Shown here piece by piece: positions 4,313 to 46,459 of a stretch of DNA of 52,569 nt. The position numbers and the translations under genes are program-made. Source of the DNA: Candidatus Omnitrophota bacterium (GTDB taxonomy: Bacteria; Omnitrophota; Gorgyraeia; Gygaellales; Profunditerraquicolaceae); the NCBI GenBank assembly GCA_049517335.1, contig JBEKSD010000013.1, positions 1 to 52,569 on the forward strand. Direction: 5' to 3'. The stretch's first letter is position 1. Each line of letters starts with the position of its first letter. Under the pieces are notes generated by a model that did not search any database, had not been told where the DNA came from, and saw only the letters and a list, made by a program, of their open reading frames with translations.

Positions 4313-4530
4313 TATAGGTATAGCGGAAACCTCGAAGAGCGAGAAGACCAAAATCATATAATGATGAGTAATGAGGTCATGTAAGAGTCTCTACAACAGA
4401 CTTTTAGAATCATCTTTGATTAGTGATGAATTACCTATCTAAACTACAAGATATAATTTTAGGTTCTTAAATGGGCCCGTTTTTTTGACATCAACAGGAC
4501 ACTATATTTTTTCAAAAAAAAGGGAGGCGC

Positions 4531-6753: not shown

Positions 6754-6759
6754 CACATT

Positions 6760-7722: not shown

Positions 7723-7743
7723 GCTTGTTCAATAGATTAAATC

Positions 7744-7844
7744 TTTAACGGAGTAGAGTTTACCGGTGTATTCTCCACGCCGTAAGCTTACTAAAGTCTT
7801 CGCTTGAAGGCGAGGGTTTTACTCATAGGCCCCCAGGACAATAA
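7744..7844 (-). mobile_element. Orphan IS200/IS605-type element end (hairpin remnant, no transposase)
   Basis: Hairpin aaagtcttcgct-tgaa-ggcgagggtttt (7793-7820), a second imperfect inverted repeat at 7746-7785, and a minus-strand start ttattgtc; resembles IS605-family ends from memory. Confidence 0.5.
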
Positions 7845-7846
7845 TT

Positions 7847-13723: not shown

Positions 13724-13741
13724 TCAATATTGGAGGTGACT

Positions 13742-14473
13742 ATGAGATCAGCTATTTCTGAAAGAAAACCTTTGCTTGAGGTGATTACTGGATTAGAAGA
13801 GGGGACGATTAACCCGAGAGAATTAAGCAAAGGAACTAAGAAGGAGTGTATCCGTTTCTTAAGATTGAAAGGATACTCAGTTATGGAAATTTCAAGTATC
13901 CTGTACATGTCTTCCAGGAGTGTGTTTCGATATTTGGAGAAAGTACGTAAGGAGAATGCGCTTACTACAAGTACTGAATTTCAACGGGAGCTTGTCGGGG
14001 AGGTGCTCAATAATTTTAGGGCAGAATATGCGAGATTGATTCGGCTGTCCCATTCCGCGAACCTCGATGATAGTGGAAAAGTCAGGGCTATTTATGCCGC
14101 GTCTAAGGTTCAGAAAGAAATGGTGAACATCCTTGACCGGCTTGGATATTTGGGTAAGGAGTTTTTAGAAGAAAAAAGCAACGGCCCAGATAATGAATCG
14201 GAACTGTTTGCTCCAGATGACCCAGTACTCTCGAGGGTGGACAAATTGCTCCCGTCACAAAGAGGAGAGATTATAGATTTATTAAAAGCGGATCCACAAT
14301 GCGATATGCGCAAGATTGCGGTGATGATCCAATGCTACATTGCGGATAATAGGAAAAAAGGACTTTACGACCCGGACGGCACATTGAGGGGAAGCCTTGG
14401 ATTGTCGAATGTCATACCTCCTCAGTCCAATAATCTTCAACCATTTGTGGATGAAGGAGTTACGATAAATTGA
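13742..14473 (+). CDS. HTH-domain protein, possible terminase small-subunit-like partner
   Basis: LRLKGYSVMEISSILYMSSRSVFRYL HTH followed by long helical segments; strong RBS GGAGGTG before ATG 13742. Confidence 0.55.
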   Translation: MRSAISERKPLLEVITGLEEGTINPRELSKGTKKECIRFLRLKGYSVMEISSILYMSSRSVFRYLEKVRKENALTTSTEFQRELVGEVLNNFRAEYARLIRLSHSANLDDSGKVRAIYAASKVQKEMVNILDRLGYLGKEFLEEKSNGPDNESELFAPDDPVLSRVDKLLPSQRGEIIDLLKADPQCDMRKIAVMIQCYIADNRKKGLYDPDGTLRGSLGLSNVIPPQSNNLQPFVDEGVTIN

Positions 14474-21822: not shown

Positions 21823-23070
21823 ATGAATATACGCGCAAAAGTCGTAACGTGGAACGAGAGGGTTATTTACTGGGGTATAATTTTCATACCTTTTGTAGTG
21901 AGTTTCTCAGCAGCCGCAGTGAATGTCTTTATAGGGCTCGTGGTTGCAGGGTTCCTGGTTAAGAAAATCGCCTTACGCGATTGCTCATTAGCCAAGACGC
22001 CCCTAAATTTCCCATTTTTCTGTCTCCTTACGGTTGCCTTAATTTCGTTTATAAATTCAATAAGCATAAAAGCCAGCATACAGGGTATTGAAAAGCTACT
22101 GAAATACGGTTTTCTATTCCTGATTATGGCTTCTGAAATTAGGGATCGGAAACACGTGAAGTGGATAATCACAGCTATTATTTCCGGTTTATTTTTGTCC
22201 TGTTCAGACGGGTTCTACTCGCTTATTTTCGGTAAGGACTTATTTAACGCAGATCCCCCTCAATTTATGCTTGGGCTATCGCGGATTAGGGCTGCTTTTC
22301 CTTCCACAAATATTTTAGGCGGGTATTTAACGCTTCTTTCGGCCCTTCCAATATCATTGGCCCTGTATTATTTAAAAGGCCGCAAGAAAATGTTATTAAT
22401 TATAGTTTCGGCGTATGTTATTTATGCGTTGATTAATACTCTTTCGCGAAGCGCCATTTTCGGAACTTGGGCAGCCATAATTTTTATGGCAGCCGTAAAG
22501 AAAGATAAGATTACCCTTTTCCTGAATCTTTTTTTAATTATCCTCTTGTCAATATTCTCTGCGCGGATTGTAACAAATTTGGTAGGCAATCAAACGACGG
22601 TGCGGGAGATTATTTTGGATGATACAAGAGTCAATATTTACCGCGCGTCTTTAAATATGATTAAACATCATCCGATAATTGGGGTAGGCGTGAATACGTT
22701 TAGCATTAATTTCCAAAAATATAAGCTGAAAGAAACAAAAGGTTTTACAGGTGATACCCAGTATTATGCGCATAATATTTATCTGCATATGGCAGGAGAG
22801 ACAGGTTTAATCGCGTTATTAGTGTTTATTTGGTTATTGTTCAGGGTTTTTAAACACTGGGCCTATTTTTACTGCAGGGCTGCTGAGGACGAATTCCTTA
22901 AAACCTGTAGCCTAGGTATTGTTGCCGGGCTTATCGCATTCCTTATTAACGGCATGGCTGAAACAAACCTCTATTATTCTAAAATTGCGTCATTCTTTTG
23001 GTTTCAAATCGGTCTATTGTTAGCGATTATTAAACTACAGATAGGTGATCATGAAAAACAAAAAGATTAA
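21823..23070 (+). CDS. O-antigen ligase family protein (WaaL-like) 2
   Basis: RIRAAF...N, TLSRSA, HPIIGVGVNTF, AHNIYLHMAGETG. Confidence 0.87.
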   Translation: MNIRAKVVTWNERVIYWGIIFIPFVVSFSAAAVNVFIGLVVAGFLVKKIALRDCSLAKTPLNFPFFCLLTVALISFINSISIKASIQGIEKLLKYGFLFLIMASEIRDRKHVKWIITAIISGLFLSCSDGFYSLIFGKDLFNADPPQFMLGLSRIRAAFPSTNILGGYLTLLSALPISLALYYLKGRKKMLLIIVSAYVIYALINTLSRSAIFGTWAAIIFMAAVKKDKITLFLNLFLIILLSIFSARIVTNLVGNQTTVREIILDDTRVNIYRASLNMIKHHPIIGVGVNTFSINFQKYKLKETKGFTGDTQYYAHNIYLHMAGETGLIALLVFIWLLFRVFKHWAYFYCRAAEDEFLKTCSLGIVAGLIAFLINGMAETNLYYSKIASFFWFQIGLLLAIIKLQIGDHEKQKD

Positions 23071-23842
23071 AGTTGTAATTCTGTGTGGCGGTAGGGGGAC
23101 ACGCTTAACCGAAGAAACTACCAATATCCCTAAGCCTATGGTGGAAATAGGAGGTAGGCCCATCCTTTGGCATGTTATGAAGACATATTCCCATTATGGT
23201 TTTAATGATTTTATAGTTTGTTTAGGCTACAAAGGATATATTATTAAAGAGTATTTTGCGAACTATTTCCTTCATTCAGCGGATATAGCGCTTGATTTAG
23301 CTAAAAATAAAATGGAAGTGCTGGGTTCAAAAGCAGAGCCTTGGAAGGTCACTCTTATTGATACCGGGCTTGATACAATGACCGGCGGCAGGATAAAAAG
23401 AATTAAAGAGTATGTAGGCAATCATACTTTTATGCTTACCTATGGGGATGGCATAGGCGACGTCAATATTAAAGAATCTTTAATATTTCATAAAAAGCAC
23501 GGTAAATTAGCAACAATTACCGCAGTGCAACAGGCAGGCAGGTTTGGCGCTTTAGATATAGCGAGTTCCGGCAATGTCAGGTTATTTTTTGAAAAACCAA
23601 AAGGTGATGGAGCTTGGATTAACGGCGGATTCTTTATCTTAGAGCCGGGAATATTCACTTTTATAAAAGATGACTCGGTAATCTGGGAAGATAAGCCTCT
23701 GGAAAAGCTCGCTAAAAATAACCAGTTAAACGCCTATAAACACAGGGGATTCTGGAAATGTATGGATACTTTACGGGATAAAATAGAATTGGACCAGTTA
23801 TGGAATCTGGGTAAGGCTCCCTGGAAAACTTGGAAAGCATAA
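23051..23842 (+). CDS. rfbF: Glucose-1-phosphate cytidylyltransferase
   Basis: ILCGGRGTRL, PKPMVEIGG, TMTGGR, LTYGDG, FWKCMDTLRD. Confidence 0.95.
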   Translation: MKNKKIKVVILCGGRGTRLTEETTNIPKPMVEIGGRPILWHVMKTYSHYGFNDFIVCLGYKGYIIKEYFANYFLHSADIALDLAKNKMEVLGSKAEPWKVTLIDTGLDTMTGGRIKRIKEYVGNHTFMLTYGDGIGDVNIKESLIFHKKHGKLATITAVQQAGRFGALDIASSGNVRLFFEKPKGDGAWINGGFFILEPGIFTFIKDDSVIWEDKPLEKLAKNNQLNAYKHRGFWKCMDTLRDKIELDQLWNLGKAPWKTWKA

Positions 23843-23851
23843 GAAAATATT

Positions 23852-24829
23852 ATGAATAAGCGATTCTGGAAAAACAAGTCAGTATTAATTACGGGCTTTG
23901 AGGGCTTTTTGGGTTCTAATCTCAGCAAAGTAATGATCTCCTCCGGAGCCAAGATTTTCGGGTTGGATATCAGGGTTAACCGGAAAGATACTATTCTGAC
24001 TGTACCTGATTATAAAAAGTTAACAGTGATTAAAGGTAGCGTAACTAACTTTAAGTTACTCAAAGATATTATAGTTAGAAACAAAATTAATGTCCTGTTC
24101 CATCTTGCTGCAGAAGCCATCGTAGGGAAATGCCACAATAATCCCTTAGGTACTTTCTCTGCGAACATTGAAGGCACTTGGAATATCTTGGAAACATGCA
24201 GAAATTCAGAAAGTATTCAGGCGATCATTATAGCCTCAAGCGATAAAGCTTACGGTAGCCATAAAAAATTGCCTTATAGAGAAGATACGCCATTAATCGG
24301 CAGGCATCCTTATGATGTGTCTAAAAGTTGCGCTGATTTGATAGCCAATACTTATGCCCATACTTATAATTTACCGGTAGCAGTCACTAGATGCGGCAAT
24401 ATCTATGGGCCGGGAGATTTTAATTTTTCCCGAATAGTCCCGGATGCTATTAGGTGCGCGCTTACCGGAAAAACGCTCTTGATACGTAGTGATGGTAAAT
24501 TTATACGCGATTATGTTTATGTGGACGATATTGTAAACGCTTATATTATGCTGGCAGAAAAGCTGCAAGCACTAAAGCTTAAGGGAGAGGCGTTTAATTT
24601 TAGCGATGAGAATCCGATTAGCGTGGTAAGTCTAGTTAAAAAAATATATAAAGCCGCAGGGGTAAAAGAAAATTATAAAATACTTAATCAAGTTAAATAT
24701 GAAATATTACACCAGTATTTAACTTCGCGTAAGGCACGAAAGATTCTATGCTGGAAGCCGCGGACTAGCTTTGGAGAAGGACTAAGTAAGACAATCCTTT
24801 GGTATAAAGAACTACTGCTAGATAAATGA
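23852..24829 (+). CDS. rfbG: CDP-glucose 4,6-dehydratase
   Basis: FWKNKSVLITG..GFLG, SSDKAY, YDVSK, GNIYGPGD; follows rfbF. Confidence 0.85.
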   Translation: MNKRFWKNKSVLITGFEGFLGSNLSKVMISSGAKIFGLDIRVNRKDTILTVPDYKKLTVIKGSVTNFKLLKDIIVRNKINVLFHLAAEAIVGKCHNNPLGTFSANIEGTWNILETCRNSESIQAIIIASSDKAYGSHKKLPYREDTPLIGRHPYDVSKSCADLIANTYAHTYNLPVAVTRCGNIYGPGDFNFSRIVPDAIRCALTGKTLLIRSDGKFIRDYVYVDDIVNAYIMLAEKLQALKLKGEAFNFSDENPISVVSLVKKIYKAAGVKENYKILNQVKYEILHQYLTSRKARKILCWKPRTSFGEGLSKTILWYKELLLDK

Positions 24830-25566
24830 AAATATTATTTTTAGGTACAAACGGTTGGTATGACAGCGAAACAGGCAATACTGTTTGTGTGCTTGTAGAG
24901 ACAAAGAAAGAATATATAATTTTTGATGCCGGTAATGGTTTTTATAAACTAGATAGGTACATTATATGCAATAAACCGGTGTATTTATTTTTAAGCCATT
25001 ATCATCTGGATCATGTAATTGGCCTGCATATGTTGAATAAATTCCATTTTAAGCAAGGGATTGATATATATGGTCCTCTTGGCTTAAGGATGCTTTTTAA
25101 GAAAGTCATTAATAAGCCATACACAATTCCTTTATCCGATTTGCCTATGAGGCTACGGTTACACGAGATTTCTAAGGGCACCATTCTTCCTTCAGGTATA
25201 AGCTATGCTCTTCTTAAGCATTCTGCGCTTTGTTATGGATACAGGTTTTGTTCAGAAGATAAAACAATTGCCTATTGTACTGACACTGGAATTTGCGATA
25301 ATCTATTTTATTTGGCAAGGAACGCGGACCTTTTAATTACCGAATGTTCTTATAAAAGAGGGCAAAAAAGTGACACTTGGCCTCATCTTAATCCTGAGAG
25401 TAGTGCTAGAATTGCGAAAAAGGCTAAGGTAAGGAAGCTTATGCTCTTACATTTTGACGCATCGATCTATCCGACATTCAAAGAAAGGGCATTGGCTGAA
25501 GCATACGCAAAAAAGATTTTTAAGAATTCAAAAGCAGCTAGAGACGGTGCGGTTGAAATTGTATAG
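24826..25566 (+). CDS. MBL-fold metallohydrolase, RNase Z-like
   Basis: FLGTNG, FDAG, SHYHLDH, YCTDT, ITEC, HL, LHF metal-binding motifs. Confidence 0.85.
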   Translation: MKILFLGTNGWYDSETGNTVCVLVETKKEYIIFDAGNGFYKLDRYIICNKPVYLFLSHYHLDHVIGLHMLNKFHFKQGIDIYGPLGLRMLFKKVINKPYTIPLSDLPMRLRLHEISKGTILPSGISYALLKHSALCYGYRFCSEDKTIAYCTDTGICDNLFYLARNADLLITECSYKRGQKSDTWPHLNPESSARIAKKAKVRKLMLLHFDASIYPTFKERALAEAYAKKIFKNSKAARDGAVEIV

Positions 25567-25587
25567 AAATCTAATTGTTGATGAAAA

Positions 25588-26520
25588 ATGAATAAAAAAA
25601 TAGCAATATTAGGGGCAACTAGTCATATCGCTAAAGGCTTGATCTATAATTTCGTTATATCGGGTAGCAATAAAATGTTCTTATTCGCCCGTTCTTCCAA
25701 GCGTGTAGGGAACTTTTTAAGAAAGAATAGCTTAAAAGGGGGTATTTTTGTTGAGGGTTTTAAGGATTTCCATTCCCATGAATATGACGTAATAATTAAT
25801 TGTGTCGGTCTTGGGGTTCCGAATAAAATTAAAGATAGTCTGGGTTTAGTCTTCCAATTAAATGAAGAGTTCGATAGTATGCTACTTTCTTATCTCGATA
25901 AGCATCCCCTGAGCCGTTGTATTAATTTTAGTAGTGGCGCGGTATATGGAAATAGCTTTAACAGTAAAATAAGGGAAGATAGATTATCTAAAATCGATAT
26001 AAACAATATAAAAGCGCAGGATTATTATTGTATTGCTAAAATTAATTCAGAAGCCAAGCACCGCGCCCGGCAGGATTTGAATATAATTGATATAAGGGTT
26101 TTTTCGTATTTCAGTCGTTTTATAGACCTTGATTCAGGTTATTTTCTATCAGAAATAGTAAAAAGCGTAAAGGAAAATAAAGAATTAGTGACAGATTCAT
26201 CTGATTTTGTCAGGGATTACCTGGGTCCGGCAGATTTATTTAATCTCGTAAAATTAATCATCAAACATGAGCCTTTTAACGGCCCTTTGGATGCTTATAG
26301 CAGGAGACCGGTTAGCAAATTTGAGCTTCTCGAATTCTTTGTCAAAAAATACGCGCTTCGTTACATTATCGATAATAAAATTAAATTTAGCTACCCTATA
26401 GGGAGGAAAAACGTTTATAGTCCTAATTCGCGCGCCGCGGCTAAAATTGGATACAAGCCAAGATTCTCATCAATTGAAGCCGTGAAATTAGAATCCGAAC
26501 TTTTGTTATCCCGGGAATAA
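25588..26520 (+). CDS. NAD-dependent epimerase/reductase (extended SDR)
   Basis: ILGATSHIA divergent Rossmann motif, FSSGAVYG, YCIAK (YxxxK), RDY. Confidence 0.8.
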   Translation: MNKKIAILGATSHIAKGLIYNFVISGSNKMFLFARSSKRVGNFLRKNSLKGGIFVEGFKDFHSHEYDVIINCVGLGVPNKIKDSLGLVFQLNEEFDSMLLSYLDKHPLSRCINFSSGAVYGNSFNSKIREDRLSKIDINNIKAQDYYCIAKINSEAKHRARQDLNIIDIRVFSYFSRFIDLDSGYFLSEIVKSVKENKELVTDSSDFVRDYLGPADLFNLVKLIIKHEPFNGPLDAYSRRPVSKFELLEFFVKKYALRYIIDNKIKFSYPIGRKNVYSPNSRAAAKIGYKPRFSSIEAVKLESELLLSRE

Positions 26521-26527
26521 GTTTTAT

Positions 26528-27835
26528 ATGAAAAAAGATATAAGAAAAGAGATATTTAATAAAGTAGCTGATTTCTATAGATCTAAAAGTAAGGATAAGT
26601 TTATTCCCGGGAAGACTAATGTTCCGTATGCCGGGCGTGTATATGATGAAAAAGAATTGATCAATGCGGTGGATGCATGTCTTGATTTTTGGCTGACAGA
26701 AGGCAGGTTCGTAAAAGAGTTTAATTCTAAATTGGCTTCTTTTGTCTGAGTAGAATATTGCATTCCTGTAAATTCAGGCTCATCAGCGAATCTTCTGGCG
26801 GTATCAGCGTTGACTTCGCCGTTATTAAAAGAAAGGCAGTTAAAGCCCAAAGATGAAATAATTACTACAGCGTGCGGATTTCCTACGACCCTCAACCCGA
26901 TTATTCAGAATAATTTACTGCCCGTATTTATAGATGTTGAGCTTGGCACATACAATATACAGGCAAAAAATATAGAAAAAGCTATCACTAAGAAGACAAA
27001 AGCCATATTTACCACGCATACTTTAGGTAACCCGGTGGATATAGATAGCGTTAAGAAAATCGCAAAAAAATATAACCTTTGGTGGATTGAAGATAACTGT
27101 GACGCGCTTGGCTCAAAATATAGAGGAAAGTTCTCGGGGTCTTTTGGTGACATATCAACTTGTAGTTTTTATCCACCACATCACATCACAATGGGGGAGG
27201 GAGGGGCCGTATTAACAAATAGCCCCCTATTGCGTAAAATTCTACTTTCCTTCCGTGATTGGGGGAAGGATTGTTGTTGTGAGACAGGCCATGACAATGC
27301 CTGTGGCAGAAGATTTACGCAGAAGTTTGGGAGGTTGCCTTTTGGTTATGACCATAAATATGTGTATTCACATATCGGTTATAACCTTAAAATAACCGAT
27401 ATACAGGCAGCAATAGGTTGTGCCCAATTAAAAAAGTTACCCAGTTTCATAGAAGCGAGAAAAAAGAACTTTAATTATTTCTATAACCGGCTTAAATGTT
27501 ATGGTAAATATTTATTTTTGCCTGAATGGAATAAGAATTCTGTTCCGAGCTGGTTTGGATTCCCGCTGTTAGTAAGAGAGGGTGCTTCGTTTACTCGGGC
27601 TGATATCGTAAGTCATCTTGAAAAGAATAAAATCGCCACAAGAATGCTTTTCGGAGGTAATCTTATTAAACAATCAGCTTATAAAAGCGTAAAATATCGT
27701 ATAGCCGCAAGTTTAAAAAATACTGATTTGGTGATGAATAATCTTTTTTGGATAGGAGTTTATCCGGGGCTTAAAAAAGAGCAACTTTCATATGTTGCAA
27801 AAGTTCTTCGGGGATTCTTTAAGACTCTATATTAA
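26528..27835 (+). pseudogene. rfbH: CDP-4-keto-6-deoxyglucose 3-dehydrase (E1), interrupted by an in-frame TGA at 26747-26749
   Basis: The two track ORFs share one frame; read-through gives FV*VEYCIPVNSGSSANLLA; EDNCD, SFYPPHHITMGEGG (His form), RDWGKDCCC, YDHKY. Confidence 0.9.
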
Positions 27836-27973
27836 TAGGCGCGATTATGGGTATTGTTGCATTTTTTATCTATGGGTTCACTGAACCAATCTTTATTATC
27901 CTAAAATAGTCGTGCTTTTTTTGGTTTGAAGTAGGTTTAGTAATGACAATATTATCTTTGAATAAAGGGGAAT
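27836..27973 (+). pseudogene. C-terminal remnant of a third O-antigen ligase paralog
   Basis: With two frameshifts it reads GAIMGIVAFFIYGFTE-NLYYPKIVVLF-WFEVGLVMTIL, similar to the ligase 2 end GLIAFLINGMAETNLYYSKIASFFWFQIGLLLAII. Confidence 0.7.
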
Positions 27974-29779
27974 ATGTCTAAGTTAACAGTTGCTGATTAT
28001 ATAGCTAAACGGCTCTCTGAATACGGTATTAAACATGTGTTTATGGTTACCGGAGGCGGAGCCATGCATTTAAACAATTCTTTCGGCCGCACAAAAGGGA
28101 TTAAGTGTGTTTTTAACCACCATGAGCAGGCTTGCGCCATCGCTGCGGAGGGATATGCTCGGATAACAGGAAAACTTGCTGTTGTCAATGTTACTTCTGG
28201 TCCGGGAGGGTTGAATACTTTGACCGGAGTAATGGGGCAGTGGACTGATTCTGTACCCGTCCTTTATATCTCCGGCCAGGTTAAATTAGAAACTACGATA
28301 AATTCCTGTCCTGATATAGCTCTCAGGCAATTAGGCGATCAGGAAGTAGATATAGTCAGCATTGTTAAACCCATTACTAAATTTGCCATATCAATAAGAG
28401 ACCCTAAAGATGTAAAACTGCTTTTAGCTAAAGCGATTCATATTGCCGTAAATGGCCGTCCTGGACCGGTATGGTTAGATATTCCTTTAAATGTCCAGGG
28501 AGCGCGAGTAGAAGAAGCTGATATGCCTGAATATGATGAAAGACAGGATAAAGTTACTTTTGATATAGAAGAAGTCGATTTAAAAATATCTCAAGCTCTG
28601 GCTCTTCTGAAAAACTCCCAAAGGCCGGTTTTAATTGCGGGACATGGTATTCGTATTGCCCGCGCACAAGAATTACTGTTATCCCTGATCCAGAAGCTGA
28701 GGCTGCCTGTTTTAACTACTTTTAATGGTTTTGATTTAGTTCCTTCTAACAATCAATTTTTTATTGGGAGAATTGGTACTTTGGGAAGTAGGGCAGGAAA
28801 TTTCGCATTGCAAAATTCTGACCTTATTTTATCTATTGGCACAAGAAATAATATAAGACAGATAAGTTATAATTGGAAATCGTTTGCCCGGGCGGCTAAA
28901 AAAATTGTTGTGGATATTGACTTAGCGGAATTAAAAAAACCAACTTTGAAACCGGATACCGCAATAAACTGTGATGCGAAATATTTTTTAAAACAGTTGT
29001 TAGAAAGGACCAAAGCTTTACCTGATTGGAGCTCGTGGTTAGAGTGGTGCAAAGAAAGGAAGAATAAGTATCCAATTGTTTTGCCGGAATACAGGAAATC
29101 TCACATGGTTAATCCTTATTATTTTATGCAGAAATTCACCGAGTTGGTTGATGCACATAATGTTATTGTTGCCGGGAATGCGTCAGCTTCCGTTATTTTG
29201 TTTCAAGCTGGTGCCGTCAAGAAAAACCAGAGGGTTCTTTGGAATTCTGGGTGTGCTTCTATGGGCTATGATTTACCGGCAGCCATAGGTGCTTGTTTGG
29301 CAAATAACAAAAAAAATACTATTTGCATTACGGGTGACGGCAGTATCCAGATGAATCTGCAGGAATTACAGACCATGGTTCATCATCAACTACCTATTAA
29401 AATATTCGTATTAAATAATAAAGGTTATATTTCTATTAAACAAACACAGGAGAATTTCTTTGCTTTGCCTTATGTAGGTTGTGATAAGGCTTCGGGAGTC
29501 AGTTTTCCTAATTTTACCAAGATCGCCAAAGCTTATGGTTTAAAAAGAGAAAGGATTATTGGGCATAAGGGTTTAAGGGGCAAGATTAATAACGTCTTTA
29601 GATATAAAGGGCCGGTTTTGTGTGATGTTTTGCTTGAATCTAACTATAAATTTATCCCTCGTTCATCTTCCGAGAAGCTTGATGATGGTAGAATAATTTC
29701 AAAGCCACTTGAAGATATGTTTCCCTTTTTGGATAGAGATGAGTTCAGGGAAAATATGCTGATAGGTGAAGAAGACTAA
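27974..29779 (+). CDS. Thiamine-diphosphate-dependent enzyme (acetolactate synthase fold, YerE-like)
   Basis: HHEQACAIAAEGY, TSGPG, RPGPVWLDIP, ITGDGSIQMNLQEL...LNN ThDP motif, SKPLEDMFP. Confidence 0.88.
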   Translation: MSKLTVADYIAKRLSEYGIKHVFMVTGGGAMHLNNSFGRTKGIKCVFNHHEQACAIAAEGYARITGKLAVVNVTSGPGGLNTLTGVMGQWTDSVPVLYISGQVKLETTINSCPDIALRQLGDQEVDIVSIVKPITKFAISIRDPKDVKLLLAKAIHIAVNGRPGPVWLDIPLNVQGARVEEADMPEYDERQDKVTFDIEEVDLKISQALALLKNSQRPVLIAGHGIRIARAQELLLSLIQKLRLPVLTTFNGFDLVPSNNQFFIGRIGTLGSRAGNFALQNSDLILSIGTRNNIRQISYNWKSFARAAKKIVVDIDLAELKKPTLKPDTAINCDAKYFLKQLLERTKALPDWSSWLEWCKERKNKYPIVLPEYRKSHMVNPYYFMQKFTELVDAHNVIVAGNASASVILFQAGAVKKNQRVLWNSGCASMGYDLPAAIGACLANNKKNTICITGDGSIQMNLQELQTMVHHQLPIKIFVLNNKGYISIKQTQENFFALPYVGCDKASGVSFPNFTKIAKAYGLKRERIIGHKGLRGKINNVFRYKGPVLCDVLLESNYKFIPRSSSEKLDDGRIISKPLEDMFPFLDRDEFRENMLIGEED

Positions 29780-29833
29780 AAGGAGTAATCATGGATAGAT
29801 TATTTCTATTTGTGACTAGAGAGGAGTTATACA

Positions 29834-30913
29834 ATGAATCGTGACATTTTTGAAGAGTTATTTGTTTTGGAATTAGCCAATAACCACTGGGGAAATGTAA
29901 AGAGAGGCTTGAAGATTGTTGAAGACTTTTCGAAGATCGCTCGGTTTAATAATGTCAGGTGTGCAATAAAACTTCAACTCCGAGATGTAAATAATTTTAT
30001 ACACAAAGATTTTCTGCAGAAAACCGATATGAGGTATATTAAAAAAACTTTAGATACCCAGATGCCAAAGAAAGATTTTATTATGCTTGTTGATGTGATC
30101 AAAAAGAATAATTGTATTCCTATGGCTACGCCGTTTGACGAGACATCGGTGGATTTCTGTGAAGAATTGCGCCTGCCGCTTATAAAAATAGCCAGTTCAG
30201 ATATTAATGACTGGCCTTTGATTGAAAGGATTTCAAAAACCAAAAAACCCGTTATAGCTTCTACAGGAGGCTCGTCCTTAAAGGATTTGGATGATTTAGT
30301 AACTTTTTTTGAAAATCGTAATTTACAACTTGCTCTTAATCATTGCGTTTCTACGTATCCTAATGATTATGCAGAACTTGAACTAAATCAGATTGATTTT
30401 CTTAAAAAAAGATACCCAGGACATACCATCGGTTTTTCTTCTCATGAGCATGGCGATTGGACAACTTCAATTATGATTGCTTATGCAAAAGGGGCGAGGA
30501 CTTTTGAAAGGCATATTGATATTGAATTAGATTCCGTACCAGTATCGCCTTATTGCTCCTTACCTGAAGAAATTGATGCTTGGTTTAAGGCATTTCATAA
30601 AGCCAAGACGATGTGCGGCCTTTCCGCAGATACAAAAAGAATCCCTTCAGAAAAAGAGATTAAATATCTCGATTTATTAGTCCGGGGTGTCTATGCTAAA
30701 AAGGATTTGCCAAAAGAACATAAGCTGACGATTGATGATGTATACCTTGCAATTCCGCTGCAGAAAGGACAGATTTCCTGTAGAGAATTAATGACTGGGG
30801 AAGTCCTCTTGTGTTCCTGTAAGAAAGATTCGCCAATTATGATTGATGTGATAGATTCTCCATACGCAAATAATGAAACATTAAAAAAACTAATTTATGA
30901 GAGAGGACTCTAA
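29834..30913 (+). CDS. NeuB/SpsE-family PEP-dependent synthase with C-terminal SAF-like domain
   Basis: ELANNHWG, TPFD, KIASSD, STGG, HCVSTYP, GFSSHE, FERH. Confidence 0.85.
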   Translation: MNRDIFEELFVLELANNHWGNVKRGLKIVEDFSKIARFNNVRCAIKLQLRDVNNFIHKDFLQKTDMRYIKKTLDTQMPKKDFIMLVDVIKKNNCIPMATPFDETSVDFCEELRLPLIKIASSDINDWPLIERISKTKKPVIASTGGSSLKDLDDLVTFFENRNLQLALNHCVSTYPNDYAELELNQIDFLKKRYPGHTIGFSSHEHGDWTTSIMIAYAKGARTFERHIDIELDSVPVSPYCSLPEEIDAWFKAFHKAKTMCGLSADTKRIPSEKEIKYLDLLVRGVYAKKDLPKEHKLTIDDVYLAIPLQKGQISCRELMTGEVLLCSCKKDSPIMIDVIDSPYANNETLKKLIYERGL

Positions 30914-30964
30914 TTTAACGCTAGCTAGCGACCCGTACACGTGAACAGCCTATTTAATAAATAT

Positions 30965-31633
30965 ATGATTAAGAATATAATATTTGACTTTGATGGGACT
31001 TTAGTTGATTCAGCAGAAGATATAATTGATTGTTTAAAATCAGCTTATAGCCTTACCGGGATTAAATATAACGTTCAAATCGATAGAAAAGTTATAGGGC
31101 CCCCATTAAAGAAAGTACTACGTTTAATCTCTCCTTCTGTCAGCCGCGAGGAAGAAGAGCTATTGATTAATTGTTTTAGAAAATGTTATGACAATTGCGG
31201 ATTTCCGCGGACTTTCCTTTATGATGGATTAAGCGAATTGTTAATTCAACTTAAAAATAGTAATAAGAATCTGTTTATTGTGACTAATAAGACTGATAAG
31301 CCGACGCGCGGAATTATTAATAATCTGGGGATTTGTTGTTTTGATGAAATCGTCTGTATCGATAGTTTTACGGAAATTGCCAATAATAAAAGTAAGGGCG
31401 CAATGATCTCATATTTAATGAATAAGAAGGATTTAGATAGAAGTTCAACTGTCATGGTAGGCGATTCGATTGAAGATATTCACGCTGCTCAAGATAATGG
31501 ATTGATAAGCATTGCCATTTTAAGCGGCTACGGGCAGGAAAATGCTATAAAAGAAAATAGGCCAGATTATATTTTAGATAAAACTAAAGATTTATTAAAG
31601 TTGATAAGTATAATTGATAAAAAAGATTATTGA
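30965..31633 (+). CDS. HAD-superfamily phosphatase (Gph-like)
   Basis: IFDFDGTLVDS, VTNK, MVGDS..D, GYG. Confidence 0.88.
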   Translation: MIKNIIFDFDGTLVDSAEDIIDCLKSAYSLTGIKYNVQIDRKVIGPPLKKVLRLISPSVSREEEELLINCFRKCYDNCGFPRTFLYDGLSELLIQLKNSNKNLFIVTNKTDKPTRGIINNLGICCFDEIVCIDSFTEIANNKSKGAMISYLMNKKDLDRSSTVMVGDSIEDIHAAQDNGLISIAILSGYGQENAIKENRPDYILDKTKDLLKLISIIDKKDY

Positions 31634-31688: not shown

Positions 31689-32384
31689 ATGAAATTAACT
31701 ATTCTTATAGGCTGCTTTAACGAAAAACCAACTATTCTTAAGGCTATTGAAGAGGCTAAAGCGTTAAATATTGATAAAGAAATTATAGTTATAGATAATT
31801 GCTCAACTGATGACACAAAAGAAATATTAGATGATTTAAGCAACGATAAGGAGCTGAAGATAATTTTTCATCCTAAGAATATGGGGGCCGGATATTCTGC
31901 CTGTGAGGGGATAAGCCTTGCTCAGGGCGATTATTTTTATGGCCCGGGGGCTGATTTAGAATATAAAATGGAAGATGTCTATAAAATGATAGATAAAATG
32001 GAAAGTGAAAATCTTGACGTTGTTTTTGGTTCGAGACTTTTGGATAAAAAAAGGGTCTCAAAGATAGAGTTAATTAAAGAAAGGCCGTATTGGCTGGGTA
32101 GTATTATTGCCACATCATTAATAAATCTGTTATATGGCAGAAATTTTACAGATATTATAGCTACGAAATTAATAAAGACAGATATCTTAAAACGATTGGG
32201 TTGCAAAGCGAATAATCAGGCTTTTGAATTTGAATTAGTCAGCAGGCTTTGTAAGGCTGGGTTCAAAATAGGCGAAATACCAGTATGGTATAAACCAAGA
32301 ACGCATAAAGAAGGCAAGACGATAAGAGCCTTTGATATAATCCCCGCAGTATTAGCAATCTTAAAGGTGAAGTTTTTTGGCTAA
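31689..32384 (+). CDS. GT2, polyprenol-phosphate glycosyltransferase-like
   Basis: FNE, IDNCSTD, ADLEY, FGSR, FEFE, Y.PR...EGK. Confidence 0.85.
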   Translation: MKLTILIGCFNEKPTILKAIEEAKALNIDKEIIVIDNCSTDDTKEILDDLSNDKELKIIFHPKNMGAGYSACEGISLAQGDYFYGPGADLEYKMEDVYKMIDKMESENLDVVFGSRLLDKKRVSKIELIKERPYWLGSIIATSLINLLYGRNFTDIIATKLIKTDILKRLGCKANNQAFEFELVSRLCKAGFKIGEIPVWYKPRTHKEGKTIRAFDIIPAVLAILKVKFFG

Positions 32385-32395
32385 AAAATAATACA

Positions 32396-33541
32396 ATGAA
32401 AAATAATAAATATTTAATTGCTCTCATAGCTTTCGCGATCTTAATAAAATTCGGTTTATTCGCCGTGGGCACAATGCGGGTGCCTGATAGTAAATTTGAC
32501 CCGGATTCAGTTGACTATTTGAATACGGCATCGATGCTGTATTCAAATCTTACCTTTGCTTCGCAAGACAGCAATGGTTTATTAAAGCCGCATGTACTCA
32601 GGACGCCAGGTTATCCTGTTTTTATCGCTATCGTGCACAACCTGATGAAGCTGCCGCTTAGCGGAGTGATTTTCTTGCAGGTATTACTGACAATCTTAGC
32701 CGCATTTATTTTGTATAAAACAGCAATTCAGATAGACAAGCGCCTTGCCGTTTTAAGCGCAGTGATTATGCTCTATGACCTTCCGGTTTCGGTCTATTCC
32801 TTAAAAATCATGACAGAGGCGTTGTTCCTGTTACTCATTACGATTTTTATTTACATATTCGTTAGGTACTTAAAAACGGGAAGGTTTAAATTTATATTTT
32901 TATCATCTTTGTTATTAGTTACAGCCACCTATGTCCGGCCGATAAGTTATTATCTGGGAGCGGTCCTTGCGGCCTTTATCCTTTATGCAAATATCCCTAA
33001 GAATTTTAAAGCCGCATTCGCTCAGGCATTTATTTTCCTGATTATAATTTACAGTCTCTTGGGGGTTTGGCAGGTTAGGAACTATAAGTGCTGCGGGGAA
33101 AAAGCATTTACTTCCATTACCAGTTCTAACTTTAGGATATACGGATTAGTTAAGGAACCTCTGAAAGATAGCGGAAATGCCGTCATGGTTAAGATTAGGC
33201 AGGGACTTAATTATACCTATGAATTATGGCGTTCATCTTTATCTCTTATGACCCGGCCGGGGACATTGAAATATTTTCACTTAAAGCCTTTGGCGATTGC
33301 CGGAAAAGTGTTCGGGTACCTTCTGGTAATTTTTTGGATGCTTGGATTTTTAGCCGGCATCTTCAGGATAAAGAAGGATATCTATTTTCAGTTTCTGGTG
33401 TTGGTTATTTTGTATTTCCTTGGGGTTGCAATTTTAAACCTTGGCGTAGATGCCGGGGAGAGATTTAGGGTGCCGATAGTACCGTGCCTAGCAATTATTT
33501 CATCCTATGGCTGGTTAATTTTAACAAGGCGGAGAGGGTAA
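32396..33541 (+). CDS. GT-C fold membrane glycosyltransferase (ArnT/PMT-like)
   Basis: DPDSVDY acidic loop after TM1, RTPGYP, MTEALF, VRP, RFRVP; polytopic. Confidence 0.75.
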   Translation: MKNNKYLIALIAFAILIKFGLFAVGTMRVPDSKFDPDSVDYLNTASMLYSNLTFASQDSNGLLKPHVLRTPGYPVFIAIVHNLMKLPLSGVIFLQVLLTILAAFILYKTAIQIDKRLAVLSAVIMLYDLPVSVYSLKIMTEALFLLLITIFIYIFVRYLKTGRFKFIFLSSLLLVTATYVRPISYYLGAVLAAFILYANIPKNFKAAFAQAFIFLIIIYSLLGVWQVRNYKCCGEKAFTSITSSNFRIYGLVKEPLKDSGNAVMVKIRQGLNYTYELWRSSLSLMTRPGTLKYFHLKPLAIAGKVFGYLLVIFWMLGFLAGIFRIKKDIYFQFLVLVILYFLGVAILNLGVDAGERFRVPIVPCLAIISSYGWLILTRRRG

Positions 33542-33548
33542 GATTTCA

Positions 33549-34333
33549 GTGCTTTCAATAGTTGTCCTGGCATTTAATGAAGAAGAAAATATCGCAAACG
33601 TCATCGAGAAAATCGAGGACTCAATTGGTATTGGTCATGAATTAATCGTAGTCAATGACCATTCTTTTGACCGCACTCCTTTAATATTAAAAGAATTATC
33701 CCCTAGATATTCTAACCTTAGGCCGCTGGATAATACAAGCGACAAAGGGTTTGCCAGTGCCGTTAAATTCGGCTTTCTCCATGCCCAGGGCGAATTGGTT
33801 GTACCGATTATGGCCGACCTTTGTGATGATTTAAATACCCTTAAAGAAATGGTTAAAAAAATTAATGAAGGCTACGATGTAGTTTGCGCTAGCCGTTACA
33901 TAAAAGGAGGTGCTAGGATTGGCGGCTCTAAGCTAAAGGGATTCTTATCGTCATTTGCCGGATGGTCCTTATATTATTTATCAGGTATACCTACGCATGA
34001 CATTGCTAATGCTTTTAAAATGTATAGAAAAAAAGTCATAGATAGTATTGATATTGAAGCGAGTAGTTTTGAGATTTCAATGGAGCTTACCCTAAAGGCT
34101 TATTATGCGGGTTTCAAAATAACAGAAGTCCTACTGTGTGGAGGGAAAGGCAGAAAGGTAGATCAAGTTTTAAGATATTTAAATTGATCCCTAGTTATCT
34201 TAAATTATATTTAGGGACTGTAATAGATAGATTTAGTCTTAAATTGAAGCAGGATAAAAAAAGTGAAGATTTTAGTTACCGGAGGTTGTGGCTTTGCGTT
34301 ATTTTAATGTTTATGGTCCGAGGCAATCTTTAA
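33549..34333 (+). pseudogene. GT2 polyprenol-phosphate glycosyltransferase-like, frameshifted near 34130
   Basis: FNEEENI, VNDHSFD, MADLCD, ASRY; the expected ITEVPTVWRERQKGRSSF is split across two frames (one base missing in gtccta). Confidence 0.75.
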
Positions 34334-34788
34334 ATAATCCCTATACAGGAGTTTGCGCAATATTTCTTTCTAGGGTAAAAAATAACCACCAGCCGTTAAT
34401 ATTTGAAGACGATCTGCAATCAAGGGATTTCATTTATGTCGGCGATATTGTGGAAACGAATATATTAGCTATGAAAAAGAGGCAAGCAGATTATGATTTT
34501 TTTAATGTCGGCACGGGAAAGCCGCATTCAATACTGGAGATTGCGCAGAAGGTCGTTAAATTATATAACAAGAATATTTGCCCCAGTGTGTTAAATAAAT
34601 ACAGGGCGGGTGATATAAGGCATTGTTACGCCGATATCAAAAAGATAAATTTAAGATTAGGGTTTATGCCTAAGATAGGATTTGAAAAAGGGATGAAGAT
34701 GCTTTTTGAATGGTCGTAAAACCAGAAGGCAGTAGACTCAACTTAGAGAGCACAAGGTGAACTTAAGAGGATGGGATTAGCCCAATAA
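34263..34788 (+). pseudogene. NAD-dependent epimerase/dehydratase with a large internal deletion and premature stops
   Basis: GTG 34263 gives VKILVTGGCGF, joined out of frame to ALRYFNVYGPRQSLNNPYTGV; the tail EWS*NQKAVDST*RAQGELKRMGLAQ* has two premature stops. Confidence 0.85.
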
Positions 34789-35720: not shown

Positions 35721-35790
35721 TAAAATTGTTAGCTAACTGTATTTATTGCGATTACCCGGTAATATTTTAGTTGGGTATGTGAGGTGCAAA

Positions 35791-37188
35791 ATGACTTATG
35801 CGGTAATTTTGGCAGGCGGAGTAGGAAGTAGGTTTTGGCCGTTTTCGCGGGAATTGGAGCCAAAACAATTCATGAAGATTATCGGCGAAGAGAGCCTGTT
35901 GCAGGCAACGATTCGGCGTTTAAAAGGGGTAGTGGAACCGGCACGTATTTACATTATTACGAATAATATTTATTTCTACGAAGTAAAAGCACAGGTTGTC
36001 AAATTTGGGATCCCTGATAAAAACATCATCCTTGAACCGGAAGGAAAAAATACCGCACCTGCAGCCGGGCTGTGCGCAAGATTAATCAGTCGGGTTGATA
36101 AAGATGCCGTACTCCTGATTTTGCCTTCGGATCATTACATTAAAAATGTGGAGAATTTTAAGCGGACGCTCAAAAAAGCAATTACTTGTGCTAAAAATGA
36201 TTTTCTGATTACGATAGGGATTAAACCGGTTACGCCGTCTACAGGGTACGGCTATATAAAGGCAAAAAAAGGGGCAATGTATTTTCAGGTTGAAAAGTTT
36301 CTTGAGAAACCAAATCTTGAGAAGGCGAAAAATTATTTTAAAAAGAAAAATTATTATTGGAATAGCGGCATGTTCGTTTGGAAGGCTTCGGTTTTTTTAG
36401 GAGAAGTCAAGAAATATTTACCTAAATTGTATGCCAATCTGCGGCAGATTAATTCTGTTAAAGATATTCCTAAATACTGGCCGGGAATTAAGGCCATATC
36501 TATTGACTATGGGATCATGGAGCGCTCAAAGCGTATCGCGCTCATTCCGTCTGATTTTTACTGGACAGACCTAGGCAGCTGGGAGGCACTTGCGGAAATC
36601 TTCCCAAAAGATAAATTGGGCAATGTCGTTAACAACGATACTTTAAATTTAGCTAGCCAAGGCGTATGTGTATTCACAAAAGGCAATAGGTTGATTTCAA
36701 CTATCGGGGTTAAGGATACGATTATTGTTGATACTCCGGATGCTTTGCTGGTTTGCGACAGGAATAAGACACAGGATGTTAAGCAACTGGTTGAGAAGCT
36801 AAAGTCGCTTAAACGTAAAGAACATCAGGTGCATTTAACTGAGCGCAGACCCTGGGGTTCGTTTACAGTCCTGCAGCAAGGTTTTGGTTTTAAGATTAAA
36901 TTAATTGAGATAGCCGCGCACAAAAGATTAAGTTTGCAGAGGCATAAAAAGCGCGCTGAGCATTGGGTGGTAGTTTCAGGCCTCGCTAAGGTTACCAGCG
37001 GTTCAAAAGTTATTTTGGTACATAGTAACGAGAGTATTTATATAGCCAAAGCAACAAGACACCGTTTGGAAAATTGCACAGGACAGCCGGTGAGGATAGT
37101 AGAAGTGCAGACCGGTGGGTATCTGGAAGAAGATGATATTGAAAGATTTGAAGATGATTATAAAAAAGAATGTCGCCCGGCAGGCTAA
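35791..37188 (+). CDS. manC: Mannose-1-phosphate guanylyltransferase / mannose-6-phosphate isomerase
   Basis: LAGGVGSRFWPFSR, PKQF, NTAPA, PSDH, WNSGMF, WTDLGSW, C-terminal cupin RPWG...SLQRH..RAEHW. Confidence 0.95.
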   Translation: MTYAVILAGGVGSRFWPFSRELEPKQFMKIIGEESLLQATIRRLKGVVEPARIYIITNNIYFYEVKAQVVKFGIPDKNIILEPEGKNTAPAAGLCARLISRVDKDAVLLILPSDHYIKNVENFKRTLKKAITCAKNDFLITIGIKPVTPSTGYGYIKAKKGAMYFQVEKFLEKPNLEKAKNYFKKKNYYWNSGMFVWKASVFLGEVKKYLPKLYANLRQINSVKDIPKYWPGIKAISIDYGIMERSKRIALIPSDFYWTDLGSWEALAEIFPKDKLGNVVNNDTLNLASQGVCVFTKGNRLISTIGVKDTIIVDTPDALLVCDRNKTQDVKQLVEKLKSLKRKEHQVHLTERRPWGSFTVLQQGFGFKIKLIEIAAHKRLSLQRHKKRAEHWVVVSGLAKVTSGSKVILVHSNESIYIAKATRHRLENCTGQPVRIVEVQTGGYLEEDDIERFEDDYKKECRPAG

Positions 37189-38269
37189 AAGAATCCTGAT
37201 TATTAATCCTTTTGGTATAGGTGATGTACTTTTTAGCACGCCTATTCTTCGGGCCCTAAAAGATAAATATCCGGATTGTTTTATAGGATACTGGTGCAAT
37301 GAACGGGTACAGAGCATCTTGGAAAACAATAAGAATATTGATATAATCTTTGCTTTATCAAAAGGAGATATTAAAAAGCTATATAAAAAATCCTGGTTTT
37401 TAGGCTTTAGTCATTTATTAAAGCTATTTTTTGAAATCAGCAAATGGAAATTTGATATTTCATTTGATTTTTCGTTCGATTGCTACTACGGTTTTATTTC
37501 AAAGTTTGCCGGGATAAAAGAGCGAATAGGGTATGATTATAAAAATCGCGGAAGGTTCCTGACAAAGAAAACGCCTTTAAGCGGTTACCTTGGGAAGCAT
37601 GTAATTGAATACCATTCTGACCTTTTAAAGGCAATCGGGGTCCCGGTAACTGACAAGAGTATGGAATTAACGGTTTCCGCACAAGCTGAAGGCGAAGCAG
37701 AAGAATTGCTCTGGTTATCAGGTGTTAAAGATACTGATTTATTAGTTGGTATTGCGCCCGGCGCAGGAGGAAGCTGGGGTAAGGATGCCATATACAAACA
37801 TTGGCCTGTTTTAAGATTCTCCGAAGTCGCGGATAAGTTGGCCTTGGATTTTAAGGCAAAGGTTTTGCTCTTCGGGGATAATAGCGAGACGCAGCTGACT
37901 GAGGCAATAATTAATGTTTGTAAAAATAAACCCATAAATTTAGCGGGCAAGACGAGCTTAAGTAGTTTAGCGGCGGTCATTAGAAAACTGAATTTACTAA
38001 TTTCTAATGACGGAGGGCCGATGCATATGGCCGTGGCTCAAGGAGTTAAAACTGTGGCAATTTTCGGCCCCGTTGATGATTTAGTTTACGGTCCTTATCC
38101 TCCGAGTGAGGATCATCTGGTAATAAAAAGTAAGATAGAATGCCGGCCATGTTATAATAATTTTCGTTTACCATCCTGCGATAAAGATAAGGAATGCCTA
38201 AATTCAATAAGCGCGGATGAGGTATTCGCGGTAGCCGAGAAACTTTTAAATCAAGGAATGACTAAATGA
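37154..38269 (+). CDS. GT9 LPS heptosyltransferase II-like
   Basis: FGIGDVL, APGAG, KHWP, NLAGKTSL, NDGGPMHMA, CRPC; start codon uncertain (37133 or 37154). Confidence 0.88.
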   Translation: MIIKKNVARQAKRILIINPFGIGDVLFSTPILRALKDKYPDCFIGYWCNERVQSILENNKNIDIIFALSKGDIKKLYKKSWFLGFSHLLKLFFEISKWKFDISFDFSFDCYYGFISKFAGIKERIGYDYKNRGRFLTKKTPLSGYLGKHVIEYHSDLLKAIGVPVTDKSMELTVSAQAEGEAEELLWLSGVKDTDLLVGIAPGAGGSWGKDAIYKHWPVLRFSEVADKLALDFKAKVLLFGDNSETQLTEAIINVCKNKPINLAGKTSLSSLAAVIRKLNLLISNDGGPMHMAVAQGVKTVAIFGPVDDLVYGPYPPSEDHLVIKSKIECRPCYNNFRLPSCDKDKECLNSISADEVFAVAEKLLNQGMTK

Positions 38270-46458: not shown

Positions 46459-46459
46459 C

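Follow-up and report, generated by a model that had tools for sequence, protein, structure and literature searches.

A predicted operon for a C4-branched CDP-3,6-dideoxyhexose with NeuB-like donor supply in an Omnitrophota genome

The 52,569-nucleotide window analysed here is an entire 52.6-kb contig (C13; JBEKSD010000013.1) of a 1.45-Mb Candidatus Omnitrophota genome that is 92% complete, and the public sequencing runs containing it carry the label peat metagenome. At 23045-31633 it holds a cassette of eight co-directional genes, all on the plus strand and with short or overlapping junctions, which encode RfbF, an RfbG-like dehydratase, a metallo-beta-lactamase (MBL)-fold hydrolase, a short-chain dehydrogenase/reductase (SDR), RfbH, a thiamine diphosphate (ThDP)-dependent enzyme, a NeuB-like synthase and a HAD phosphatase. 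We propose, at a probability of about 0.55, that this cassette is an operon for a CDP-activated 3,6-dideoxyhexose with a long, hydroxylated, acyl-derived branch at C4, for which the NeuB-like enzyme would supply the donor. A first-pass annotation of the window had listed the same eight genes and suggested that a 2-keto-3-deoxy acid made by the NeuB-like enzyme is ligated to C4 by the ThDP enzyme; profile searches and the list of open reading frames (ORFs) recovered all eight genes in that order. Pfam profiles were searched against the 47 plus-strand ORFs of at least 120 amino acids in the window.

The NeuB-like synthase and its ThDP-dependent partner

The NeuB-like gene (29834-30913, plus strand; PF03102, 140.9 bits) is predicted to encode a phosphoenolpyruvate (PEP)-dependent 3-deoxy-2-ulosonate synthase of a distinct, conserved subfamily. 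Its product scored 127 bits against the NeuB equivalog TIGR03569 (cut-off 399.65, about 270 bits short) and 124.1 bits against the PseI equivalog TIGR03586 (cut-off 340.25, about 215 bits short). It belongs to the same fold family as NeuB, PseI and LegI, with PF03102 and the C-terminal domain aligned over residues 7-335, and retains their metal-binding His pair and the Lys and Ser residues of the PEP site. In the alignment to Neisseria meningitidis NeuB, the metal ligands His215 and His236 correspond to H204 and H227, and the PEP-site residues Lys129, Ser132, Ser154 and Ser213 correspond to K118, S121, S143 and S202; Glu25 and Tyr186 are likewise conserved. In contrast to the known nonulosonate synthases, the N-acetyl-binding Arg314 is replaced by Ile307 and Asn184 by Ser. 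Glu134 is changed to Asp, Asp247 probably corresponds to Ser in a low-confidence region of the alignment, and KLQ at residues 46-48, misplaced in the pairwise alignment, is the probable equivalent of Lys53/Gln55. Comparison of the 4ipi chain with 1xuu showed Ala for Arg at precisely the position of Arg314. In the accessible text of a study of NeuS enzymes, the arginine contacts the N-acetyl carbonyl of N-acetylmannosamine and is described as completely conserved among bacterial NeuS enzymes (PMC11339185). The closest solved relative of the NeuB-like protein is the uncharacterised structure 3g8r (219.5 bits).

The first-pass annotation had noted that the window lacks NeuA and NeuC, and indeed neither CTP_transf_3 (NeuA) nor Epimerase_2 (NeuC) was found among the 47 ORFs, nor was any other nonulosonate gene. 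The same held across the 92% complete genome, in which PF02348 matched KdsB, IspD and GlmU only, leaving no NeuA, and PF02350 had zero matches. We considered the weak PF02348 matches as a hidden NeuA and rejected them, as they are IspD and GlmU; a second, weak NeuB-family match elsewhere in the genome (C2) is a DAHP synthase. Because both equivalog cut-offs are missed, the Arg314 counterpart is lost and the genome has no NeuA or NeuC, we conclude on sequence grounds that the NeuB-like gene is not a sialic-acid gene. The subfamily is highly conserved, with more than 100 clusters at 69% identity or higher and source names that include Microcystis and a CPR3 bacterium.

The gene directly upstream of the NeuB-like gene (27974-29779, plus strand) encodes a predicted ThDP-dependent carboligase with all three TPP_enzyme domains (PF02776, PF00205, PF02775) and a canonical GDGS...NN motif at residues 454-482. 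Among solved structures the best match was JanthE (8rph; 8rpi and 8rpj are further entries) from Janthinobacterium sp. HH01, at 419.9 bits over residues 3-598, whereas the best acetolactate synthase reached 250.8 bits. The leading NCBIfam names were those of acetolactate synthases, each below its cut-off, including TIGR00118 at 374.7 bits against a cut-off of 538.35. The first-pass annotation had raised the concern that this might be a plain acetolactate synthase; these scores argue otherwise and place the protein, with JanthE as the reference, in the YerE-like class. JanthE itself carries CDG in its ThDP motif in place of the canonical GDG of the window enzyme. As described in the accessible text of two reports, JanthE is YerE-like, an aldehyde-ketone carboligase that couples long alpha-keto acids, including 4-hydroxy-2-oxovalerate, to ketones (PMC12188165; PMC12247030).

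When one genome per species was scanned, 26 loci were found to encode the NeuB-like subfamily at 57-70% identity, under record titles from Bacteroidota, Verrucomicrobia, Pseudomonas, Rhizobium, Actinomycetota, Myxococcota and others; the cultured Pseudomonas peli DSM 17833 and P. mangiferae (L020 and L018) are among the carriers. We searched these loci with the window proteins by tblastn (E ≤ 1e-10, at least half of the query covered). A homologue of the ThDP enzyme (41-59% identity) was present in 24 of the 26; of the two loci without a match, one is an 8-kb contig and in the other the contig is cut off at the NeuB-like gene. The distance between the two genes was at most 2.5 kb in 22 of these 24 loci and at most 300 bp in 10. 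Homologues of rfbF (46-64% identity) and rfbG-like genes were each found in 15 loci, rfbH-like genes in 17 and an RfbH-type dehydrase in 16, and rfbF, rfbG-like, rfbH-like and ThDP genes occurred all together in 12. Further recurrent neighbours were FkbM methyltransferases (11 loci), a 294-residue extended SDR (10), Methyltransf_23 proteins (10) and DPMS-like GT2 glycosyltransferases (12, with GtrA). Neighbouring ORFs were annotated as 15 cluster representatives and 66 further ORFs, 39 of 105 candidates having been left out beforehand as mostly short or probable antisense frames in GC-rich loci; no CTP_transf_3 or Epimerase_2 was detected among these 81. The first-pass annotation had pointed to this very association as a check on its proposal, and the NeuB-like subfamily does travel with YerE-like ThDP enzymes, commonly with RfbH-type dehydrases, and with no NeuA seen among the annotated neighbours. 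Direct observation thus extends to what the genes encode, to the class of ThDP enzyme, to the linkage and its conservation, and to the absence of any sialic-acid activation gene.

Public automatic annotation names relatives of the synthase 'N-acetylneuraminate synthase' or 'SpsE', and, together with the acetolactate synthase names that head the list for the ThDP protein, this would suit an ordinary sialic-acid synthase and an ordinary acetolactate synthase brought together by chance in an O-antigen locus. We find this scarcely credible, as every curated cut-off is missed, JanthE scores far above any acetolactate synthase, the Arg314 counterpart is lost, neither NeuA nor NeuC is encoded in the genome and the pairing of the two genes is conserved.

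The CDP-sugar front end and the in-frame TGA in rfbH

The first gene of the cassette is rfbF (23045-23842, plus strand), whose product, glucose-1-phosphate cytidylyltransferase, makes CDP-glucose and scored 406.6 bits against TIGR02623 (cut-off 300.25). It is followed by a gene for a short, 325-residue SDR form of an RfbG-like CDP-glucose 4,6-dehydratase (23852-24829, plus strand), for which the best NCBIfam family, TIGR02622, gave 215.6 bits, under its cut-off of 278.45. This protein has the nucleotide-binding glycines (GxxGxxG), a YDVSK sequence (YxxxK) and an SSDKAYG sequence with an Asp-Lys pair; among 4,6-dehydratases, this pair is typical of the CDP enzyme.

The rfbH gene (26528-27835, plus strand) encodes E1, the CDP-6-deoxy-4-keto-hexose 3-dehydrase. 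The first-pass annotation took it as an open gene and overlooked an in-frame TGA. The ORF finder reports just 26810-27835, a 341-residue ORF past the stop, which already scored 570.6 bits against the RfbH profile NF011936 (cut-off 423). Reading through from the ATG at 26528 gives a 435-residue RfbH with a single in-frame TGA at codon 74 (26747-26749), a Cys-rich stretch and the HH signature at the place where aminotransferases have Lys. Among the related loci, 13 have an rfbH-like gene at 45% identity or more, with the HH signature in all nine of these that could be aligned; three have one at 36-37% identity with a single His, and the match in one locus (L013) has Lys and is an aminotransferase.

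Reassignment of TGA to Gly or Trp was excluded as an explanation for the stop: because TGA closes 223 of about 980 long ORFs, this genome uses the standard code. We aligned contigs from four public runs (X1-X4) to the 8.6-kb cassette stretch, and the sole difference listed across it was base 26747. This base is G in X2 and X3, with one contig each at depths of 3.9 and 3.1, which turns TGA into GGA (Gly); Gly also occupies this column in nine of 14 aligned relatives. X4 does not cover the site. Neither does X1, the probable source of the assembly, whose contigs end at 26691 and start at 26748; a break at the stop tends to be the pattern expected from a mixed position or an error. An intact rfbH allele was thus observed, on evidence that, at low depth and with one contig per run, is suggestive rather than final. 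All four runs consist of contigs, and their depth therefore carries no information on expression.

A genome of the same family (G237) has a cassette with an intact, 437-residue RfbH that is 75% identical. Its genes run PglF-like, Wzy, rfbF, rfbG-like (69%), GT2, MBL (54%), a 292-residue SDR, NeuB-like (72%), ThDP (66%), a methyltransferase, RfbH and a GT2 that is 76% identical. Elsewhere the NeuB-like gene is sporadic. It was not found (E ≤ 1e-40) in any of 40 near relatives sampled, and of 400 further genomes drawn from the phylum, 10 gave a match at E ≤ 1e-60. Only two of these 10 matches are close (70% and 73% identity); the remaining eight belong to a longer form, 508-545 residues in length and 36-43% identical.

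At the downstream edge of the cassette, a 143-residue ORF (34288-34719, plus strand) matches the C-terminal half only of an NAD-dependent epimerase/dehydratase (about positions 166-331 of the profile) and lacks the N-terminal Rossmann part. This ORF is a gene remnant and may be the scar of a recombination. In the cassette region, G+C is 33-40%, compared with 38-44% in most contigs of the genome. Because the distribution is patchy, the G+C content is at 33-40% and a truncated epimerase lies at the edge, the cassette fits horizontal spread of a surface-antigen module.

These observations also bear on whether the cassette is a decaying remnant, with rfbH a pseudogene and no branched sugar made in this organism. 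The TGA at codon 74, in a genome where TGA is a normal stop, the truncated epimerase fragment just downstream and the lack of a close NeuB-like homologue in 398 of the 400 other phylum genomes sampled would all be in keeping with decay. Yet the stop is the single disabling difference in 8.6 kb and the seven other genes are open; moreover, the same strain appears to have an open allele in two other samples (X2 and X3), where the one difference listed is the G at 26747, and the contigs of the source run break exactly at the site, as a mixed site or an error would give. We therefore regard decay as somewhat unlikely.

Proposed pathway and known branched-sugar systems

In the pathway we propose, RfbF, the RfbG-like dehydratase and RfbH would together produce CDP-4-keto-3,6-dideoxyglucose, with a housekeeping reductase standing in for the absent E3 that serves RfbH. 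The NeuB-like enzyme would condense PEP with an aldose, probably an aldose phosphate, and the HAD-IA phosphatase (30941-31633, plus strand; PF13419, 103.8 bits) would remove the phosphate to leave a free 3-deoxy-2-ulosonic acid. The HAD-IA protein scored under the cut-offs of all phosphoglycolate-phosphatase-like families, and its pairing with a NeuB-type synthase recalls phosphosugar-dependent sialic acid synthesis, in which the animal Neu5Ac-9-P synthase is followed by a HAD phosphatase. The YerE-like enzyme would then decarboxylate the ulosonic alpha-keto acid and add the resulting acyl anion equivalent to the C4 ketone, giving a branch of about C5 to C8 whose length would be set by the aldose used. 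A candidate ketoreductase, the divergent extended SDR of 310 residues (25588-26520, plus strand; PF01370, 37.4 bits), would reduce the new side-chain ketone, and the GT2 and GT-C genes downstream may move the sugar to a lipid carrier and then to the envelope glycan. What the donor enzymes do chemically, in which order the steps proceed, how long the branch is and which roles fall to the SDR and MBL proteins are our inferences.

The general logic of ligating a 2-keto-3-deoxy acid by a YerE-like enzyme is already published (PMC9306805), and the new element is the NeuB-type donor supply only. Steitz et al. (2022) rationalised the clusters for erwiniose (ErwE/F/I/J, Pectobacterium atrosepticum), caryophyllose (MMAR_2331/2332, Mycobacterium marinum) and gastriose (MygE/F/I, M. 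gastri), each of which pairs a YerE-like enzyme with an aldolase gene (PMC9306805). ErwE, MMAR_2332 and MyGE accept gamma-hydroxy alpha-keto acids of C4-C8, and ErwE refuses pyruvate (PMC9306805). As in these clusters, the window combines genes for CDP-4-keto-3,6-dideoxyglucose with a YerE-like carboligase, a candidate for the NAD(P)H-type reductase and a gene able to make a 2-keto-3-deoxy acid, and the predicted product is likewise a 4-C-branched 3,6-dideoxyhexose for an envelope glycan. Whereas the published donors come from pyruvate aldolases of the BphI, HpaI or citrate-lyase type, the donor predicted here would come from a NeuB-family synthase that depends on PEP, aided by a HAD phosphatase; no aldolase-type Pfam family was found among the 47 ORFs of the window, and the NeuB-family synthase stands in that place. 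The window also differs in its MBL hydrolase and in that no E3 was found; its SDR is a putative counterpart of YerF and ErwF. Compared with the yersiniose A pathway of Yersinia pseudotuberculosis (DdhA-D, YerE, YerF), the front end of CDP-glucose formation, 4,6-dehydration and 3-deoxygenation by E1 is shared, and ThDP-dependent branching at C4 followed by reduction is predicted here as well. However, YerE uses pyruvate and yields a C2 branch, whereas the window has a predicted dedicated keto-acid synthase and no DdhD (E3) was found in it.

We favour by a little, as the most economical reading, the ligation of a NeuB-made donor that the first-pass annotation had put forward, because the layout matches the clusters of Steitz et al. 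and the NeuB-family synthase is the sole candidate for a keto-acid-forming enzyme. Of that proposal, the gene linkage, the ThDP class and the lack of NeuA and NeuC all stood, and the role it gave to the SDR stays uncertain, because proteins of this SDR type are fused to HAD elsewhere and it is not the recurrent type in the related loci. The window SDR has no NCBIfam match and carries the motifs GATSHIAKG, SSGAVYG and YYCIAK (S...YxxxK), and its family comprises 490 representatives at E ≤ 1e-30.

Several observations weigh against ligation of a NeuB-made donor to a CDP-3,6-dideoxy sugar. As assembled, the sequence has a stop codon in rfbH that blocks the pathway. No AscD/RfbI-type E3 reductase (Fer2 + FAD_binding_6 + NAD_binding_1) was found by a genome-wide profile search, which returned four NAD_binding_1 ORFs of 247-285 residues and a sole Fer2 match elsewhere, in a 636-residue ORF. 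In nine of the 26 related loci (two of these nine are 5-kb contigs), the fetched DNA contains the NeuB-like/ThDP pair but neither rfbF nor rfbH, so the acceptor may not always be a CDP-3,6-dideoxy sugar. HAD occurs in just nine of the 26 (10 at E ≤ 1e-3), and a phosphorylated substrate is therefore not universal. The window SDR gave only three weak matches in these loci, where the recurrent SDR is of another type, and the MBL protein had a homologue in none of the 26. Furthermore, MyGE accepts pyruvate too (PMC9306805), as does JanthE in the accessible text of its two reports (PMC12188165; PMC12247030); because both also take pyruvate, membership in the YerE-like class leaves a simple C2 branch possible. 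Finally, the literature searched held no biochemical data for any member of the NeuB-like subfamily.

Phosphosugar-dependent synthesis of sialic acid or KDN relies on NeuB plus a HAD phosphatase, and the cassette could on that logic serve two independent products: a yersiniose-type C2 branch made by the ThDP enzyme from pyruvate, and a separate KDN- or KDO-like ulosonic acid made by the NeuB-like enzyme and HAD. The uptake of pyruvate by YerE, JanthE and MyGE is compatible with this (PMC9306805; and, in their accessible text, PMC12188165 and PMC12247030). However, a ulosonic acid needs CMP activation, and the CTP_transf_3 proteins of the genome are only KdsB, IspD and GlmU, with none among the annotated neighbours of the 26 loci. 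Two products would also leave unexplained the near-obligate adjacency of the NeuB-like and ThDP genes across phyla (24/26), and we consider them quite unlikely.

The same genes could also act by another chemistry or in another order, with PEP added to a nucleotide-sugar carbonyl or with the pair working on a dTDP- or GDP-linked 4-keto sugar. The nine loci without rfbF and rfbH in the fetched DNA would be explained in this way, and one of the related loci (L030) has rmlC/rmlD-type genes instead; a metagenomic locus (L039) carries the pair without rfbH, and HAD is dispensable in 16-17 of the 26. On the other hand, we know of no NeuB-family enzyme that uses a ketone electrophile, the best-matching characterised ThDP enzymes are ketone-accepting carboligases and not simple decarboxylases, and HAD fusions point to a small phosphorylated substrate. 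Overall, a different chemistry or order appears unlikely. In one specific version, the NeuB-like enzyme would add PEP not to a free aldose but to a nucleotide-sugar carbonyl, either the C4 ketone or an aldehyde or ketone of a first branch, and the resulting keto-acid branch would be decarboxylated or extended by the ThDP enzyme. This version is highly doubtful; if true, it would add a new type of reaction to the NeuB family and open a new route to higher-carbon branched sugars.

If a NeuB-made donor is indeed ligated at C4, a second, PEP-driven entry into branched-sugar synthesis would exist, and a family publicly named 'sialic acid synthase' or 'SpsE' would be misnamed. Erwiniose, caryophyllose, gastriose and other long-branched sugars are rare constituents of envelopes whose biosynthesis was rationalised only in 2022, and undescribed branched sugars would become predictable in Pseudomonas, Microcystis, Bacteroidota and many uncultured lineages. 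That the cassette makes a chemically undescribed, polyhydroxyalkyl-branched sugar, spread over many phyla, is a tentative suggestion to which we give slightly less than even odds. For this organism, the operon would be a sporadically distributed surface-antigen module in a small-genome peat bacterium, and the enzyme pair could serve to prepare chiral tertiary alcohols out of keto acids derived from sugars. Such genes may already be listed in an in silico survey, reportedly published by Krug et al. in 2024, that covers more than 200 YerE-like clusters. That survey and the supplement of Steitz et al. (2022) lay outside the literature covered, in which we found no published link between a NeuB-type enzyme and branched-sugar synthesis.

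Accessory genes, fusions and the surrounding glycan locus

The gene between rfbG and the SDR gene encodes an MBL-fold metallohydrolase of the short RNase Z/PhnP-like type (24826-25566, plus strand; PF12706, 66.7 bits), the start of which overlaps the rfbG stop. Its HYHLDH metal motif is intact, and its best solved structure, at 60 bits, is 6kns, a 'putative metal-dependent hydrolase'. A metagenome scan with this protein returned three relatives. One (L037) lies between the tail of an rfbH and the start of a HAD gene; another (L038) is on a 2-kb contig with no other match to the window proteins. In the third (L039), an rfbG-like gene (44% identity) is followed by the MBL gene (55%) and, further on, by a gene for a NeuB-like::cupin fusion and a ThDP gene. 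Because the order of the pair recurs in L039 and in the same-family genome G237, where the MBL gene also comes after the rfbG-like gene, the short rfbG-like/MBL pair is a recurring sub-variant represented by the window, L039 and G237.

The L039 contig has further features of its own. The NeuB-like::cupin fusion (12597-14111) is a 504-residue protein with a lyxose-isomerase-like cupin. A second gene (3488-5170) encodes a 560-residue protein in which a canonical NeuB domain is fused to an RfbF-like nucleotidyltransferase. Also on the contig are a YerE-like ThDP gene, a NUDIX gene and three radical SAM/SPASM genes, but no rfbH. The eight genomes of the phylum with distant matches carry the same long NeuB-like form, of 508-545 residues.

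Fusion proteins linked the cassette families in several other combinations. P0010, P0123 and P0124 are HAD::NeuB-like fusions, and the NeuB-like protein is fused to an SDR in P0125, to PhyH in P0126, to a dehydroquinate-synthase (DHQS)-like protein in P0127 and to a GFO-type oxidoreductase plus a cupin in P0133. The window-type SDR is fused to HAD in P0146 and to a 4,6-dehydratase-like SDR in P0258. A 1154-residue protein (P0128) was considered as a NeuB-like::ThDP fusion and rejected: its NeuB part ends at position 272 of 359 and is followed by about 120 unaligned residues, so that it is probably a read-through artefact, and we counted it as adjacency only. In three of the 26 loci (L008, L010 and L023), a DHQS-like gene joins the NeuB-like/ThDP pair, and two of them (L008 and L023) additionally carry an FGGY kinase and an adh_short SDR. 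This partner and the DHQS fusion in P0127 seem to point to a second way to prepare the donor.

Nearly all genes of the window are on the plus strand and together form an envelope-glycan locus, which includes a flippase, many GT2 glycosyltransferases, two Wzy_C proteins, a PglF-like dehydratase, Bac_transf, heptosyltransferases, manC and a DegT aminotransferase, followed by priA, fmt and glycolysis genes. Directly downstream of the cassette lies a probable transfer module on the plus strand, consisting of a GT2 (31689-32384; PF00535), a GT-C-like membrane protein (32396-33541; PF13231) and a second GT2 (33549-34187; PF00535). In the related loci, DPMS-like GT2 genes, often with GtrA and GT-C-type partners, likewise lie downstream of the cassette.

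Further upstream, at 5512-10296 (plus strand), the locus encodes a TylC3-type C-methyltransferase (Methyltransf_13/14), a GDP-mannose-dehydratase-like SDR, a GT2 and a B12-binding radical SAM enzyme; as a second set for deoxysugar tailoring, these genes suggest that the glycan also contains a C-methylated sugar. Two tandem, paralogous GalT/HIT-like genes (45436-47455, plus strand; DUF4921/DUF4931 with GalP_UDP_tr_C) are placed between a polysaccharide deacetylase gene and gap-pgk-tpi. The manC-like ORF (35746-37188, plus strand) and the following GT9 ORF (37115-38269, plus strand) overlap by 74 bases as listed, and the true start of the GT9 ORF is probably downstream of its first GTG.

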